Source of the DNA: a virus
Taxonomy: Duplodnaviria; Heunggongvirae; Uroviricota; Caudoviricetes
DNA: 23,729 bases
Direction: 5' to 3' (one strand)
Virus record (IMG/VR): IMGVR_UViG_2651869696_000004
Both the position numbers and the translations under genes were made by a program. The notes beneath the pieces were generated by a model. It searched no databases. It was given only the letters and a program-made list of their open reading frames with translations, and was not told the DNA's origin. Position 1 is the first letter of the stretch, and each line of letters opens with the position of its first letter. Shown piece by piece: positions 107 to 23,729 of this stretch.

Positions 107-946
107 TTGGTTGATGGTTTTGGCACAACCCCCATCTCACACTTTGGATATCGCATCGCAGACTATGATGTGACGACACTTTATCCGCTTGCTTTGTTCA
201 TTTCGATAGCTAACATCGCTGATGATGAGAAAGCAGCCATGTATAATGATCTTGTCTCCTACGTAGTACGAAGAGCCGTATGTGGCCTGACGCCAAAGAA
301 TTACAACAATGTATTTATGAATGTATTGCGGCACTTGGCTAAAACGGAAATTTCCAGTGTTGAGTTACGTAATATCCTCAATAACTTAAATGGCGAAGCC
401 TCACGTTGGCCTGGTGACTCAGAATTTCTCAACGCTTGCATCAATGCTCCACTTTATCCTGGCAGGCTCGACGCACCGAAAATGCGCTCAATGTTAACGG
501 AACTTGAAAGAGAACTTTGTCGCCAAGTGAAGACCGAAAAGCCTGATGTTCCAAATCTTTCTAATCTCGATATCGATCATCTTATGCCCCAAAGTTGGTA
601 TTCCTGTTGGCCTCTCGAAAATGGTCGTATGGTGACAAATTCAGATGCTACGGTATTGAACCAAATTGTTCTGTCTGGAACCGATCTTACCCCTGAACAG
701 CTACTGGTAAGGAAACGGCAACAAGCGATAGCTACTTTGGGAAATCTAACTTTGCTTAACCTTAGCGTAAACCGTTCTGTTCAGAATGCTGTATTTCTGA
801 AAAAACGTGATGCTCTCATCGTCCACACCAATCTACGACTGAACATTCCACTTATAGTTAAGGATAAATGGGATGAGGATGAAATCCTGGAGCGGGGTAA
901 AAATTTGGGGGAAATTGCATTGAAAGTATGGCCAAAACACGATTAA
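107..946 (+). CDS. DUF1524/GmrD-like His-Me finger (HNH-type) nuclease domain protein; start codon uncertain (TTG at 107 or ATG at 239)
   Basis: Motifs DIDHLMPQS and GNLTLLNLSVNRSVQNAVFLKKRD match the DUF1524 signature found at the C-terminus of GmrSD-type enzymes; in-frame stop at 8-10 excludes a longer N-terminus in this frame; appears lower in GC than the phage genes by eye. Confidence 0.7.
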   Translation: MVDGFGTTPISHFGYRIADYDVTTLYPLALFISIANIADDEKAAMYNDLVSYVVRRAVCGLTPKNYNNVFMNVLRHLAKTEISSVELRNILNNLNGEASRWPGDSEFLNACINAPLYPGRLDAPKMRSMLTELERELCRQVKTEKPDVPNLSNLDIDHLMPQSWYSCWPLENGRMVTNSDATVLNQIVLSGTDLTPEQLLVRKRQQAIATLGNLTLLNLSVNRSVQNAVFLKKRDALIVHTNLRLNIPLIVKDKWDEDEILERGKNLGEIALKVWPKHD

Positions 947-2349: not shown

Positions 2350-2773
2350 GCCATTCAATATCTGGAGCACTGGAGGTATCAACCAGCTCCAGTGCGTCCA
2401 GATAATCCAGCCACAAATTATATTGCGCCAGTTCGTCACCTTTCAGACGACCAATAGCGGCTTTACCAGGCCATTGTTTACTGTTCATATAATCGTTGGC
2501 CTGATTAATTAGTAGCTGTCTTTCTGATTCAGTAATTTCAGTAAGTTCTTCATGCGTAGGGGCAGGAATATCCGCCCACGCGGGCAGCCCATCACCTCCG
2601 GCAATACGGATTTTTCCTTGTGGCGGTTCAGCCATAAATTCACTGATAATATTTTGACTCACCTCCTTAGCATCTGATAAATCCCATCCCTCTGATTTAT
2701 ATTTATCAATCATATCCACAGGGAAAAAAGCATTATGCCTTGCGCTATAAACATATTCGTTCATATAAATCAT
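2321..2773 (-). CDS. Tail fibre assembly protein (Tfa) for the currently expressed fibre
   Basis: 150 aa immediately downstream of the fibre gene; conserved Tfa C-terminal region LWLDYLDALELVDTSSAPDIEWP; 3' ends of the two tfa genes overlap convergently at 2321-2349. Confidence 0.8.
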   Translation of the reverse strand: MIYMNEYVYSARHNAFFPVDMIDKYKSEGWDLSDAKEVSQNIISEFMAEPPQGKIRIAGGDGLPAWADIPAPTHEELTEITESERQLLINQANDYMNSKQWPGKAAIGRLKGDELAQYNLWLDYLDALELVDTSSAPDIEWPTPPAVQAR

Positions 2774-2784
2774 CCTGAATAAAA

Positions 2785-3447
2785 TTATTCACCAACAGCC
2801 CACCAACTGTAAGTCATTGACACCTTGTCGCTGGTTGATGCAGTTCTGTAAGCAGAATTAAAGCCGGTTAATGTTGGGCCTTCTACGGACATAACGAATC
2901 CACGCCCTGCACCAAAAGGCGCACCGCCATCGCCAGAATGGGTAAGAATGGCGATATCCGCTTTTTTAGGGAAAGGGATAGGAAATGTAATCCTCATTGT
3001 TTGCGTCGATAATTTCGGCATAGCCTCACCTCGACCATATTGCAGGATTTTCCCGTTGGGTAATTTCATCCATCCATCACCACTGGCAAAAGAGGTCATG
3101 TCCGGTATCTGATTTTCCCCTGTCCCCACCCCTCGTTTTGCTGCTTCTCCCAAACCAAGGTTTTCGAGAGCCGTTTTCACCGTGCCATCCGATTTGATAT
3201 CACCAAACGGATTCTTGCGGCTTAACAGCAGAGCACGAAGCGCGGTAAGCAACTGGTCGTTTCGCCCCTTCTCCAGGCTGGCACCGGATGCCTCCACCAC
3301 GCTGCAAAGCTCCTCCTGCAACATATCAAAGTAGTCATCATCCAGATCGGTGGCAGGTGTGCCGGTCTGGGGGTTACCACGGGTAAAACCGTTCTTACCC
3401 GCGCCGAACTTATCCTTCTGCGCGGTTTTCGTGTCTATACGATGCAT
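2785..3447 (-). CDS. Tail fibre protein (StfP-like); constant N-terminal part outside and variable C-terminal part inside the invertible segment
   Basis: 220 aa directly downstream of the gp48-like gene; crossover site 3145-3170 falls at codons 93-101 ([12 protein letters not shown]). Confidence 0.8.
3145..3170. repeat. Right crossover site of invertible segment (TTCTCCCAAACC-AA-GGTTTTCGAGAG)
   Basis: Inverted copy of the 1225-1250 site; core dinucleotides are identical when the sites are aligned in the same orientation. Confidence 0.7.
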
Positions 3448-3450
3448 GGA

Positions 3451-4035
3451 TTACTCCGGATATTTAAAAATTACGTAGGTATGCGACGGGCAGAGTTTGT
3501 TAAGCACACACTCGACAACGGTGTCGCCCCAGATACGCAGCGCGGAATCACAGGGATCGCCACATGTCATCCAGGTGGTGTTGGTGGCAGCTGGCATGTT
3601 GACCTGCCAGTAATACCGCCATTCCGGCGCATTCACCGCGTCAGTACAGGCCAATGAGCAGGTGAAGGTGCTTTTGTCGTATCGCGTGATGGTGGCAGCT
3701 GGTCTGCCCAGGGCAGCAAGCTGGGCAAGATAAAAATCCTCGTTGATGCCGCCCGCCAGGTTAACCTTCGCATCCAGCCGTTGCTGACGCTGGCGAAGGG
3801 TCTGTGTCCCTGTAGGAATACATTCATCCGGCAGGCCGCACAGACGCTCCCAGCGATTTATCAGTTCGGTGGTGGTGCGCGGATCCAGCTCCCGCATCAG
3901 GGCATCCGCACGCTGATGAACGCGGGTTAATGACGGTGCCGCACCGGCAATCGCCGGATCGCTGGCTGACCACGCCGGACCGGGCGGCAACAGTGCTGAC
4001 AACAGACGGATGTAATCATCGTTTGTCACGTCCAT
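3451..4035 (-). CDS. Mu gp48-like tail protein (DUF2313/YmfQ-like)
   Basis: 194 aa; position between baseplate J-like gene and tail fibre; N-terminus [16 protein letters not shown] typical of this family. Confidence 0.75.
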
Positions 4036-5084
4036 GAAATCGCCCCCAGAACCGCCAGCTCATTTTTCGCAATGGTGATATTGTCCGCCGGTGCAAGCAA
4101 CTGATGGCTGTATTCCCCGTTCGCACCGGAAATCGCTTCACTGATACGTGACACCTTCAGTTCTCCCTGCGGATAACCATCACGCAGCAGGAACGAACGC
4201 AACTCCGCGGTGATGGCAGCCCGTATTTCCGGTGTGTCCGGCGTCACACGGATATGAAAATCCACCGTATGTGCCACCGGCCTGAACACATACAAATCAG
4301 AGCCTGCCACCGGGGCCAGTGGCCCGATATGTTGTCTTGCCGCCGTTTCCGTTGATTCTTCCGGAATGGGATTAATCAGGTCACTGCTGGCAATCATCAC
4401 ACCGACAGTCCCCGTTCCCATCCAGTGTCGGTATGTCCATGCGCGGGTAATGCCAGGCACTTCTTTAGCCCAGACGACATAGTCCCCGTCAGCCCCGCCC
4501 TGCGGCGTCCAGTAATACCGCTCAATGACGCGGGCGCGCCACGTTTCCAGCTCTTCAGTATCAAATCCGCCTGTCAGGGTGTCAGCCACACCGGAAGACG
4601 GCAGACCATTCACCGGCGTGACCAGGATTAATGCCGTACCGTCGTCAGCGTTACCGACCGCACCTGCACTTGAGCAGGCGATCGGCACGCGCAGGACACC
4701 ACCGGAGCTGATTGCATCGTCAGTTGTCGTGTACTGCACCAGGTCATCGCGCTGAATAACACTCCCGGCAGTCACCTTCAGGCCATCGCTGACACCTTCC
4801 CAGCGCATATACCCGCTGGCAACCGTGGCACCCTTGCGCGGACACCGTTTCATCGCAGCATGTCGCGCCAGCCAGGACTCATCGCACAGGTCAGGCAGCA
4901 TATTCATTGCCAGATAATCGATGTAACCGTAGACCGTATGCAGCGCCGCCGCATACACCTTTGCCCGCACGTCTTCATCCATGCGCCGGAGCGTGTCGCT
5001 GACGTCCAGCCTGGCGAATAAATCGTTACGGAGCATACTGATATTTTCTGCCAGCGTCGGGCGCTGAAATTCACTGTCCGCCAT
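4026..5084 (-). CDS. Baseplate J-like protein (Mu gp47-like)
   Basis: 352 aa; conserved position and length in Mu-like baseplate module. Confidence 0.8.
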
Positions 5085-17879: not shown

Positions 17880-18061
17880 TATTTACCTCCGCCGAAAGAC
17901 GGCTGTGTACGGTCGAGATATCGCGCCACCAGCCACGACCAGAACAGACACAACGCCCCGGCAACAACAAACCCCGCCGGGGGATAAATCAGCCAGGCAC
18001 CATACGCCAGCAAAAGCGCCCCCAGCACGCCCACCAGAGGCGCGAGAATCAGCATGATCAT
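17879..18061 (-). CDS. Small two-helix membrane protein between terminase and portal
   Basis: 60 aa with two hydrophobic segments; function unknown. Confidence 0.45.
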
Positions 18062-20773: not shown

Positions 20774-20823
20774 ATAAAAAATTTATAATAAGTAAAATAA
20801 TAAAGAAAAATGCTCAAAGGCAA

Positions 20824-21378
20824 TTATCTTGACTCAAATACAAATCTAGAAGAGATGAGCTTATCAAGCATTTTCATAAGTAAATCCTTACTCTCACCAC
20901 CATTTATATATTTATTAAAGTTAGACTCGAACTCATGCCAAACTTTTTCTAACTCAGTATTATCAAATAAGTGCTCTGTCGCAAACCATGAAGATTGGCA
21001 ACAATCGAAAATACTCAAAAGCTCATCAAATCTTTTAACATTCTCTTCTCCCAACTCAATTTGCTGACTAATAAGATCTACATCTTTAAATAGCCATTTC
21101 GCAATAACTTGCTCTCGTTCATCATTGAGTTGCTCGGGGTCAATATTGACAGGCATAAATAATAGAGCTGTCTTTAATTTCTTTAATGCATTCCTAAAAT
21201 CTATTTTTACTTTTGTTTTCTCTTGTTCCCTCCACGTAAATAATGCCTTGAACGCCAAAAACAAAGTAACAATAGTAGCTCCAGCACTCACCCAAGATGC
21301 AATCATTGCCCAACAAGCCCACTCAGCAGCAGCACGGTTTGCTACAAGTGTCTCATATGCAATATAATTTTCGTTCAT
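20824..21378 (-). CDS. AT-rich moron: membrane-anchored protein of unknown function
   Basis: 184 aa; one N-terminal hydrophobic helix (about residues 20-47) then acidic helical domain; GAGGT Shine-Dalgarno 4-5 nt before the ATG; region conspicuously AT-rich versus flanking phage genes. Confidence 0.6.
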   Translation of the reverse strand: MNENYIAYETLVANRAAAEWACWAMIASWVSAGATIVTLFLAFKALFTWREQEKTKVKIDFRNALKKLKTALLFMPVNIDPEQLNDEREQVIAKWLFKDVDLISQQIELGEENVKRFDELLSIFDCCQSSWFATEHLFDNTELEKVWHEFESNFNKYINGGESKDLLMKMLDKLISSRFVFESR

Positions 21379-21455
21379 TTTTACCTCACTGTTAATAGTG
21401 AGAGTATTGTAACTAAAAGCATAATAACTAGAACAGTCAAATAAAAATATTTCAC

Positions 21456-21734
21456 CTAATGAATATTATTATTCAAATGCAGATTGTACTTTTGCTCTCC
21501 TAACCTACGAAGATCAGACTTATCACGGTTACATAGCCCCAGTGCTGATAGCAGACTTACATTCAAACTAAGACTATCCCCATAAGTCAGAGGATTGGGT
21601 ATAACTGGCTGTGGAGTTTCAGCGAGCAGGTTCGCCGGTAACGGTATCGTTGGAACCTGCACGTATACTGTCCGCGTACTTCCGCAACCGGTCAGCAGCG
21701 ACATCAGGCACAGGGCGTGAAGCGCAATCATCAT
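21456..21734 (-). CDS. Rz1: o-spanin (Rz1-like outer-membrane lipoprotein), overlapping the 3' end of Rz in another frame
   Basis: Internal start MMIALHALCLMSLLTGC with lipobox LTGC, followed by a Pro-rich segment; overlaps and extends beyond Rz. Confidence 0.65.
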   Translation of the reverse strand: MMIALHALCLMSLLTGCGSTRTVYVQVPTIPLPANLLAETPQPVIPNPLTYGDSLSLNVSLLSALGLCNRDKSDLRRLGEQKYNLHLNNNIH

Positions 21735-22011
21735 CCGCAACAGCCACTTTGATATCTTCCTGGGTTCTCTGTGACTCCAGTGCGATCTGCTGTTTTGCAT
21801 GCTGGTTAGCCTCCAAAACTGTATTGACGATTTGCATTGATTGCAGGACGTTATTGGTAATGGCAGTTGCTGATTCAGCATTTTGTAAAGCCTCATCAGC
21901 ACGTTTCTTTTCGTACTGATATTTGCTGTAGTAGTAGTTGGCTGACCAGATGAAAGAACCAATGGCAGTAACGAAAAAAGCAGCGATAATCAGCTTATAA
22001 CTCAACTTCAT
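21619..22011 (-). CDS. Rz: i-spanin (Rz-like)
   Basis: 130 aa; N-terminal transmembrane segment LIIAAFFVTAIGSFIW then coiled-coil periplasmic domain; directly after endolysin. Confidence 0.8.
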   Translation of the reverse strand: MKLSYKLIIAAFFVTAIGSFIWSANYYYSKYQYEKKRADEALQNAESATAITNNVLQSMQIVNTVLEANQHAKQQIALESQRTQEDIKVAVADDDCASRPVPDVAADRLRKYADSIRAGSNDTVTGEPAR

Positions 22012-22471
22012 TTACCACCCCACCAGCCTCTTTAAATCGGGCAATCAGGTCACCGATTTTATGTTCATACTGACCGTAACCTGCGCCCGGCAGTGAAGCC
22101 CAGATATTGCTGCAACGATCGATAGCCTGACGGATATCACCGCGATCAATCATCGGTAAAGCGCCACGCTCTTTAATCTGCTGCAATGCCACTGCGTCCT
22201 GGCTTTTGGGGGAGAAGTCTTTCAGACCAAGCTGTTTACGGTAAGCATCCCACCATCGGGAAAGAATCTGGTAGCGTCCAGCAGCCGTTGATTTAAGTTT
22301 TGGGTTTAGCGTGACAAGTTTGCGAGGGTGGTCGGAGTAATCAGTGAAGAGTTCACCACCGACAATAACGTCATAACCGTGGTTACATGTCGGTTGCCGT
22401 CCATTATCCGTTCCTTCTGACCATGCCACCATATCGAGGAAAGCTTTACGCTGGGAATTTAGTACCTGCAT
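21995..22471 (-). CDS. R: Endolysin, lambda R-type lytic transglycosylase
   Basis: 158 aa; close to lambda R over the full length as recalled from memory (NQRKAFLDM.AWSEGTDNGRQ...), not confirmed by search. Confidence 0.9.
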   Translation of the reverse strand: MQVLNSQRKAFLDMVAWSEGTDNGRQPTCNHGYDVIVGGELFTDYSDHPRKLVTLNPKLKSTAAGRYQILSRWWDAYRKQLGLKDFSPKSQDAVALQQIKERGALPMIDRGDIRQAIDRCSNIWASLPGAGYGQYEHKIGDLIARFKEAGGVVNEVEL

Positions 22472-22474
22472 AAA

Positions 22475-22810
22475 TTACTCCTTAGAGCCACCAAACTTGT
22501 TACCGATTACTCTCATTGCAGCCCCACGAATTGCATCGACCCCGATCAGCCCCACCCCACCACCAATGGCAACAGAAAGCGATTTAGGCCATCCGACATA
22601 CTCAAGCGCGGATGCAAAGGTCAGCGTCAGAGCGCCACAGAGCAAAATTTCGAGTGTTTTTCGTTTCCAGCCGCCACCACCACCAAAATAGGCAATACGC
22701 AAACCAGCCATAACAATCGACATAATCACTGCGCCCAGCGGCGTATCTCCACGCCACCAGCTCTGGAACAACTCCAGCCAGTCCGGCCAGGTATTTGGGT
22801 TATGAGGCAT
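22475..22810 (-). CDS. Putative holin (three predicted transmembrane segments); start set at ATG 22810
   Basis: Immediately upstream of endolysin; three hydrophobic segments and charged C-terminus; GAGGTGA upstream of ATG 22810; the track start at 22882 is a GTG inside the terminator hairpin. Confidence 0.55.
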   Translation of the reverse strand: MPHNPNTWPDWLELFQSWWRGDTPLGAVIMSIVMAGLRIAYFGGGGGWKRKTLEILLCGALTLTFASALEYVGWPKSLSVAIGGGVGLIGVDAIRGAAMRVIGNKFGGSKE

Positions 22811-22852
22811 TTCGTCATCTCTCACCTCGCGATTATTTGCGGGTGCTGTGTT

Positions 22853-22880
22853 GGAAATAAAAAGGCCACGCAACGTGGCC
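22853..22880 (-). terminator. Intrinsic terminator on the late-gene strand (7-bp GC stem, 3-nt loop, then TTTTTATTT)
   Basis: Minus strand reads GGCCACG-TTG-CGTGGCC followed by TTTTTATTTCC; lies between methyltransferase stop and holin start. Confidence 0.6.
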
Positions 22881-22887
22881 ACCAGAA

Positions 22888-23646
22888 TTATTTCCCCACC
22901 AGTTCACTTACCTCTTTCACTGTCTGGTTAAACCGATCTGACTCAAGCTCAACACCTAACGCCCGACGCCCCAGCTCCATTGCTGCTTTTATTGTGGAAC
23001 CAGATCCCATAAAAAAATCAGCAACCAGATCACCTGGTCGACTACTGGCATTGATTATTTGCCGGAGCATATCCGCCGGTTTCTCACACGGATGTTTACC
23101 CGGGTAGAACTGAACGGGTTTATGCGTCCAGACATCGGTATAAGGCACGGAGACTGATACGGAGAAATAGCGCCGGAGAGATTTAAACTCATCCAGCAAT
23201 TCAGAATATTTGCGATTCAGTGAATCATAAGATGCCACCAGCTGGTGGTGTGTCTGTTCCAGTTGTTGTTCCTGAAACTTCTCTGCCGCTATACGGGAAA
23301 ACAGTGCCTGCAACTTCCGGTAGTCAGCCTCATTCGGCAACTGCCACTGACTGGCACCAAACCAGTGGGAAACCATGTTTTTCTTACCAGTGGCTTCGGC
23401 AATCTGTTTTGCCGTTATACCCAGTTCGGCACGTGCATCCCTGAAATACGATATCAGCGGTGCCATTATGTGCTGTTTGAGTTCCCTTTCTTTTTCCGCA
23501 TAGCCGTCACTTTTGCCGCGATATGGCCCCTGGTAATGTTCAGCAAACAGAACGCGCTCTGTAGCGGGGAAATATGCCCGCAGGCTTTCTTTATTACACC
23601 CGTTCCATCGTCCGGACGGCTTCGCCCAGATGGGTAATGACTCCAA
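22888..23646 (-). CDS. DNA methyltransferase (N6-adenine/N4-cytosine, beta-class-like) lacking the N-terminal DPPY-type motif in this frame
   Basis: C-terminus HPCEKPADMLRQIINASSRPGDLVADFFMGSGST matches the HPTQKP...DPFAGSGTT AdoMet-binding region of YhdJ-type methylases; no DPPY-like motif upstream; TTG start. Confidence 0.7.
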   Translation of the reverse strand: MESLPIWAKPSGRWNGCNKESLRAYFPATERVLFAEHYQGPYRGKSDGYAEKERELKQHIMAPLISYFRDARAELGITAKQIAEATGKKNMVSHWFGASQWQLPNEADYRKLQALFSRIAAEKFQEQQLEQTHHQLVASYDSLNRKYSELLDEFKSLRRYFSVSVSVPYTDVWTHKPVQFYPGKHPCEKPADMLRQIINASSRPGDLVADFFMGSGSTIKAAMELGRRALGVELESDRFNQTVKEVSELVGK

Positions 23647-23647
23647 C

Positions 23648-23729
23648 TTATTGATAGTGTTTTATGTTCAGATAATGCCCGATGACTTTGTCATGCAGCT
23701 CCACCGATTTTGAGAACGACAGCGACTTC
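23648..23729 (-). CDS. 3' end of an ORF entering from the right edge (stop TAA 23648-23650)
   Basis: Open frame from window edge ending 2 nt before the methyltransferase TTG; may be the missing N-terminal part of the methyltransferase in another frame, or a separate gene. Confidence 0.3.
   Translation of the reverse strand, partial: KSLSFSKSVELHDKVIGHYLNIKHYQ

Follow-up and report, generated by a model that had tools for sequence, protein, structure and literature searches.

A putative Rho-independent terminator between the methylase and holin genes of an SfV-like lambdoid prophage

The Q cassette of lambdoid phages has been defined as the Q gene, PR', a pause element, a terminator and the downstream genes, and the Q proteins have been grouped into the families Q-lambda (PF03589), Q82 (PF06323) and Q21 (PF06530) (PMC9388147). 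Q is described as a nozzle on the RNA exit channel, which blocks the formation of terminator hairpins processively over tens of thousands of nucleotides (PMC9388147). Terminators lying directly ahead of the lysis genes have also been annotated. The GenBank record of Shigella phage SfV (U82619.2, 35222..35253) carries a "putative rho-independent terminator" between orf48, which encodes a methylase, and the holin gene S, and in the record of phage Ayreon (MF807953.1, 42529..42568) a terminator is annotated after the methylase gene.

The same element was found in the DNA analysed here, a stretch of 23,729 nucleotides referred to as the window. The hairpin and T-tract of the annotated SfV terminator are identical to those of the window, and its position is the same, with 7 nt separating it from the methylase stop and 53 nt from the start of S; the Ayreon element differs from that of the window in the loop only. 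Nothing material separates the two annotated elements from the present one, except that the methylase gene upstream of it in the window is cut by IS1. The hairpin is already known as a putative terminator from the SfV annotation.

Late operon of the window and anatomy of the hairpin

The window was approximately 95% identical to SfV and to several E. coli phages, and its sequence points to an SfV-like lambdoid prophage. The hairpin and the genes for the methylase and the holin are all present on the minus strand, on which the holin is followed by endolysin, Rz/Rz1, an ORF of 184 amino acids, an HNH endonuclease and a P27-family small terminase, and then by large terminase, portal, protease and capsid genes and, further on, those for the sheath and tail fibres. 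The gene order therefore identifies the minus strand as the late operon of a contractile-tailed lambdoid prophage of the SfV type. The 158-amino-acids-long endolysin (21995..22471, minus strand) corresponds to the SfV lysin R and is annotated in E. coli FT130 as a glycoside hydrolase family 24 protein. The Rz-like i-spanin (21619..22011, minus strand) matched DUF2570 (2.2e-05), and an Rz1/LysC-like o-spanin embedded in Rz could be placed at about 21456..21734 on the same strand by collinearity with FT130.

Several other features were recorded along the window. Between Rz/Rz1 and the HNH gene, the GC content drops to 0.34-0.37 at 20800-21450, compared to 0.50-0.59 on either side, and this AT-rich island contains the 184-aa ORF (20824..21378, minus strand), which had no Pfam match. 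A promoter-like TTAACA-17-GAAAAT (21395..21367) is present just upstream of this ORF, relatives carry other cargo such as Bor at the same position, and on its sequence the island is a moron candidate. At the far end of the prophage, a GmrSD_C-domain protein (107-946, plus strand) may represent a type IV restriction or defence gene. It adjoins a tail-fibre region (1169-2773) with two genes for tail-fibre assembly, the 3' ends of which overlap on opposite strands, and with a Collar-domain fragment; by this arrangement the region looks like an invertible host-range segment. The Rfam scan of the whole window returned no family.

The stem-loop GGCCACG-TTG-CGTGGCC (22864..22880, minus strand) consists of a perfect 7-bp stem with six G-C pairs and a 3-nt loop, and the hairpin alone folds at -11.3 kcal/mol. 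The T-tract TTTTTATTT (22855..22863, minus strand), in which eight of the nine bases are an uninterrupted run of T, begins at the base directly 3' of the stem and is followed by CC to position 22853. The stem lies 7 nt past the methylase stop codon TAA (22890..22888) and is followed after 53 nt by the holin ATG (22810..22808). In its sequence, the element thus has the G+C-rich perfect stem, the short loop and the directly adjoining 3' U-rich tract of an intrinsic terminator, and its location is also that of one, as it is non-coding, lies 3' of the methylase gene and has the methylase orientation. The initial annotation had described this hairpin and T-run on the late-gene strand in a 77-bp gap between the methylase stop and the holin start; both descriptions agree with the present analysis (minus strand, 22880..22855; gap 22887..22811, 77 nt). 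The opposite strand of the hairpin reads ACCAGAATTATTT and has no T-tract, and the hairpin is therefore unidirectional; a bidirectional terminator could be ruled out, as the plus-strand tail is without a T-run.

A strict scan was conducted for perfect stems of at least 7 bp with at least six G-C pairs, loops of 3-8 nt and at least eight T in nine bases. The hairpin at 22864..22880 was the sole match on both strands of the 23.7-kb window, and an equivalent hairpin was present in none of 300 dinucleotide-preserving shuffles under the same strict criteria. A loose terminator scan of the window revealed no overall enrichment (22 sites compared to 14 ± 4.2 in shuffles). The 101-nt context of the hairpin produced a folding z-score of -2.8. 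With its 3-nt loop and a predicted stem energy of -11.3 kcal/mol, the element is a good, not exceptionally strong, putative terminator. Another terminator-like hairpin, with a 12-bp stem and the weak T-tail TTTTGCTGGC, was observed just after the large terminase gene (18016-18043, minus strand), probably inside a small ymfR-like ORF; it is a further site for late transcription to cross.

The sequence scan detected no promoter-like site between the hairpin and the holin gene; the lysis and morphogenesis genes therefore depend on read-through, as had been proposed initially. The position of the hairpin 7 nt past the methylase stop codon could also suit an element that stabilises the 3' end of the methylase message, or bars its processing, with no meaningful termination. 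Stable GC hairpins at 3' ends protect mRNA. Such a function is very unlikely here, however, as the conserved and uninterrupted U-tract (8/9) is typical of termination, whereas protection against exonucleases does not require one. Moreover, transcripts made by Q-modified polymerase run on, so that no 3' end of this kind would be produced without termination or cleavage.

Conservation of the hairpin and the start of the holin gene

The hairpin of the window was also identical in mEp460_4F5, E. coli FT130 and 689R6, and the T-tract TTTTTATTT was invariant in seven aligned methylase-carrying phage and prophage sequences. When prophage contexts were fetched by the holin protein alone, so that retrieval was not conditioned on the hairpin, the hairpin was present in all ten, including four of the 689R6 type, in which the methylase gene is mostly replaced and only its 3' end is left. 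SfIV possesses neither the methylase nor the hairpin and T-tract element. A second survey utilized 120 viral contigs containing the motif. The methylase was the upstream gene in 106 of the 113 contigs with enough upstream sequence, and the downstream holin was of the S21 type in 74 and of the lambda type in 43; as this survey was conditioned on the motif, it demonstrates linkage, not conservation.

Comparison of the flanks revealed the module to which the hairpin belongs. Phages cdtI, mEp460 and Ayreon have the methylase and the hairpin in common with the window, and their homology ends near window position 22838, after which they continue with a holin of the unrelated S21 type (MKSMDK...) and with another endolysin. 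SfIV has the holin and endolysin in common with the window, with homology from about position 22830, and carries a different terminator-like hairpin approximately 125 nt before the Shine-Dalgarno sequence. The hairpin is thus found ahead of two unrelated holin classes, lambda-type and S21-type. The initial annotation had placed it immediately upstream of the lysis cassette; these comparisons assign it to the 3' end of the methylase module rather than to that cassette. In SerU-LTIIb, the methylase homologue is followed by tRNA genes instead of a terminator, and distant homologues of the methylase therefore do not always have a terminator behind them.

Among the variants, the arms and the T-tract were kept and the loop changed: TTG was found with a 7-bp stem, and GTAG, GTCAG or GCAG with one of 6 bp. 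Two loci showed a GGTCACG variant, in which pairing is kept only as G-U, in RNA. No double compensatory change was present in the terminator stem among the variants; the stem is nearly invariant, and covariation therefore neither supports nor contradicts the structure. The 7-nt arms are exact reverse complements and a mosaic junction lies only ~25-40 nt away, as might be expected of a palindrome acting in DNA, either bound by a dimeric protein or used for recombination at the module junction. Such a role is most improbable, however. The loop of 3, 4 or 5 nt shifts the spacing of the half-sites among variants, which argues against a protein-binding palindrome; the C-to-T variant pairs only in RNA; a strand-specific T-tract would have no role in a symmetric DNA site; and the homology breakpoints fall downstream of the T-tract, outside the palindrome.

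The holin gene (22475..22810, minus strand) starts at ATG 22810 and encodes a 111-amino-acids-long class I holin of the lambda family. It matched PF05106 (2.6e-27), with residues 3-105 of 111 covering profile positions 2-99 of 99, and was 25% identical to lambda S. A holin gene of 336 nt, equivalent to window 22810..22475, is given both by SfV S and by NCBI for E. coli FT130, where the prophage has 100% identity to the window over the junction of methylase and holin. The GTG of the ORF track (22882..22880) shares the first base of the stem, and the first ~10 codons from this start would be made up of the hairpin and T-tract. The initial annotation had noted this overlap and preferred the start at 22810; the overlap was found as described, and the preferred start is supported by SfV S, by the FT130 annotation and by the full-length PF05106 match. 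The 140-aa holin calls in mEp460_4F5 and 689R6 run through the terminator and overlap the methylase gene, and were regarded as artefacts. The holin annotation should consequently start at ATG 22810, and not at GTG 22882 or at the longer automated starts.

An extended start and a dual start were also considered and rejected. The in-frame GTG 22825 is out of frame in SfIV owing to a 2-nt insertion, and the residues which it would add, RDDE, are net acidic, against an antiholin-type start. A likeness to the dual start of lambda S (ATGACGAAATG compared to ATGAAGATG) was superficial, as the two N-termini are 5 residues out of register when the proteins are aligned.

A second stem-loop was predicted upstream of the holin gene (22823..22845, minus strand), formed by CACCCGC (22845..22839) and GCGAGGTG (22830..22823), and it would occlude the Shine-Dalgarno sequence GAGGTG (22828..22823). 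Its arms are conserved before the two unrelated holins with a loop of 4, 7 or 8 nt, and it recalls a stem-loop that closely precedes S in lambda (CCCC..GGGG; L139, 1368-1381). Only one-sided (wobble) changes, and no compensatory pairs, could be observed in this second stem, and the evidence for the structure is therefore weak. An out-of-frame ATG at 22818 is located 4 nt past GAGGTG, a better spacing than the 12 nt of the holin ATG 22810. It opens an ORF of 30 codons (22726-22818, minus strand) which overlaps the holin start, and it is conserved in all methylase-linked copies, while SfIV has ATA. This ATG could be a decoy start, or it could be meaningless.

Q, PR' and tR' of the relatives and IS1 in the window

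A Q antiterminator gene was present upstream, in the same orientation and 1.6-4 kb away, in all relatives with intact upstream DNA. SfV Q has 250 amino acids, belongs to PF03589 and is 34% identical to lambda Q (E = 3e-42). Its stop codon lies 1654 nt from the hairpin, with orf47 and the methylase gene in between. The alignment of the Q-proximal regions of SfV and lambda revealed a -10 element (TAAGAT in SfV, TAAATT in lambda), and the sigma-dependent pause element AACGATGGG follows SfV Q with the same spacing as in lambda. A separate hairpin, AACCCGC-CGCTGA-GCGGGTT with a T-run, starts 107 nt past the SfV Q stop and is also an annotated terminator. It could further be noted that in SfV (L001) the decamer GATAAGATTT at 3153-3162, which contains the putative PR' -10, is repeated at 3193-3202, 40 nt downstream and just before the tR' hairpin; this second copy might serve as a further sigma-dependent pause element.

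On this comparison the tR' analogue exists but is a different element, located directly after Q. The methylase-holin hairpin lies approximately 1.5 kb downstream of tR'. In every relative examined, two to four terminator-like sites were present from Q to S, and this hairpin was the final one. The initial annotation had likened it to the pR'-tR' arrangement, in which a late promoter shortly upstream would yield a short transcript until Q acts. A strong terminator motif placed right before the lysis cassette suits a tR' equivalent, as does the fact that in lambda tR' is the last terminator before S. Nevertheless, this analogy fails and is very improbable: in SfV-type relatives the PR' -10, AACGATGGG and a distinct tR' hairpin are all found within ~130 nt of the Q stop, whereas the hairpin is not promoter-proximal but 1654 nt from the Q stop in SfV, with 1.25 kb of coding sequence ahead of it, back towards Q. 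Moreover, the methylase 3' region has no promoter-like site, and this one hairpin is found behind Q genes of three families that are unrelated to each other.

The last observation comes from the ten holin-anchored contexts. All ten had an upstream Q, of PF03589 in eight loci, of PF06323 in one (L131) and of PF06530 in one (L138), and the same holin, the hairpin and, except in the 689R6-type loci, an intact methylase cassette were found downstream of all three families. PR', the Q-binding element and the pause element are specific to a given Q; the hairpin is tied to no Q family, an indifference which is expected of a generic downstream terminator that a polymerase loaded with any Q would pass.

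A more far-reaching possibility is that the whole 77-nt linker, i.e. the terminator with the stem occluding the Shine-Dalgarno sequence, forms a portable "lysis gate", in which a transcriptional barrier is coupled to a translational throttle and which serves as a preferred recombination joint. The linker is common to two unrelated holin classes and is found downstream of all three Q families. If it is such a gate, it would keep an intact lysis cassette silent and tolerable for the host in IS1-disrupted prophages, and the ATG 22818 decoy could damp holin translation in place of the in-frame dual start of lambda S. We regard this idea as speculative and improbable.

The upstream region of the window itself is interrupted. 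The methylase gene, encoding a DNA N6/N4 methyltransferase, is represented by its 3' 745 nt (22888..23632, minus strand), which encode residues ~104-350 of a protein that has 350 amino acids when intact; the intact SfV homologue matches PF01555. Homology to intact methylase copies of E. coli prophages ends at window position 23632, and the gene has therefore lost its first 103 codons and with them the catalytic DPPY motif. The adjoining sequence (23632..23729, minus strand) is an end of IS1 with the insB-proximal inverted repeat, 100% identical over 98 nt to the IS1 of SfIV, and this stretch matches 5089 of 5426 E. coli genomes. IS1 continues beyond the end of the window, and its transposase has the direction of the late genes, towards the hairpin. 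Window 22700-23632, from the methylase remnant into the holin gene, was 100% identical to prophages in E. coli genomes; in spite of these copies, the methylase/IS1 junction was absent from complete E. coli genomes, and it also had no match when representative genomes were scanned for the exact pattern. Apart from the window, the truncated methylase product of 252 aa was found only in a 2.7-kb draft contig, which likewise ends at IS1.

As IS1 cuts the methylase gene, an upstream Q gene and promoter cannot be assumed to be contiguous with the window. Lambda Q-like antitermination acting from further upstream, as the initial annotation had proposed, is well supported in the relatives by the presence of Q and of a PR'-like unit, the very elements to be sought beyond the window, but in this genome the upstream sequence is IS1. 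On the sequence of the junction, the late operon of the window is probably uncoupled from Q, and the hairpin may be a relic here. IS1 insertions are polar, and even a simple insertion probably lowers the late transcription that reaches the lysis genes. Transcription reading out of IS1 would in turn be halted by the hairpin. The severing of the late region from its upstream control bears on whether lysis of the host by this prophage can be induced.

Role of the hairpin and cassettes between Q and the lysis genes

We consider it probable that the hairpin is a Rho-independent terminator which ends the orf47-methylase cassette within a Q-dependent late operon and serves as a back-up barrier for the lysis genes. 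This cassette would follow the Q/PR'/tR' control unit and precede the lysis genes. A polymerase without Q would form the GGCCACG/CGUGGCC hairpin, release at the U-tract and stop 53 nt short of the holin gene; such unmodified polymerase could come from leak-through at tR', from a weak promoter in the cassette or, in this genome, from IS1. A Q-loaded polymerase from PR' would be unable to form terminator hairpins and would pass this hairpin as well as tR' and other terminators, and the read-through would allow expression of the holin, endolysin, spanins, terminase, and head and tail genes. The hairpin would accordingly act as a second-line barrier against premature expression of the lysis genes and not as the switch terminator. 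Termination in vivo, its override by Q and a selected role as barrier are each what we infer from the sequence comparisons.

The main alternative is that the cassette is a moron which the lysogen expresses from a promoter within the cassette itself, with the hairpin mainly ending that transcript. The cassette is indeed optional among relatives, since it is missing in SfIV and partly replaced in 689R6-type loci, and the terminator at its 3' end comes and goes with it (SfIV is without both; cdtI and Ayreon have both), as is expected of a moron. In addition, the slot between Q and the lysis genes in SfIV is described as occupied by a moron that is bordered by signals for initiation and termination (PMC3851460), and the neighbouring cassettes found in the same slot in Ayreon and in an Stx2c phage each end in their own terminator. 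However, a simple consensus scan, which is an insensitive one, detected no sigma-70-like promoter on the coding strand from tR' to S in SfV. The GC content of the methylase region (0.48-0.50) is also no different from its flanks, the remnant resembling the lysis genes in this regard. With neither a promoter of its own nor an atypical composition detected, the methylase cassette therefore falls short of the full definition of a moron. Furthermore, the hairpin is kept where the methylase is truncated or destroyed, as in the 689R6-type loci and the window, which suggests that its value is independent of the methylase. On balance, the moron explanation is unlikely, and a terminator acting as a back-up barrier remains the preferred reading.

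Methylase cassettes can be seen elsewhere between Q and late genes. A divergent methylase (~79% identity) is present in Stx2c phages, where a strong terminator of unrelated sequence comes after it, 60 nt ahead of stx2A. In the Stx2c phage record LC727876.1 (L140), which is essentially unannotated, the stretch 2693-4117 holds the methylase homologue, located between a lambda-family Q and stx2A, together with the terminator GGCTCGC-TTTT-GCGGGCC with T6 at 4039-4056. A literature search on methylase cassettes between Q and the lysis genes gave nothing relevant. The general picture from these sequences is one of optional cassettes accumulating in the interval from Q to the lysis genes; in several cases, namely the methylase cassette, the Ayreon ORF and stx2, the cassette is closed by a terminator of its own. 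SfV-like late operons would thus contain several intrinsic terminators, of which only the Q-proximal one is the switch. Stacked cassettes with terminal terminators illustrate the mosaicism of lambdoid phages and the need for processive antitermination by Q, and involve no new principle. As the hairpin is annotated in SfV and fits textbook lambdoid biology, it is therefore ordinary and matters mainly for correct annotation.

Among known systems, the SfIV moron (PMC3851460) and the Stx2c cassette with its terminator before stx2A resemble the present case in being optional cassettes between Q and the lysis genes that end in an intrinsic terminator. The insulator terminators of Tn916, as outlined in PMC11658703, block premature expression of the element's genes and are bypassed by dedicated antitermination, which is the same concept; Tn916 is an unrelated element in an unrelated host with a different antitermination mechanism, and on that outline the likeness is one of analogy only. 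Lambda tR' and the hairpin are both intrinsic terminators on the late strand ahead of the lysis genes, and override by Q would be expected for both. They differ in position: lambda tR' lies within ~200 nt of PR' and sets the short abortive transcript (6S RNA), whereas the hairpin follows approximately 1.5 kb further on, two genes later.
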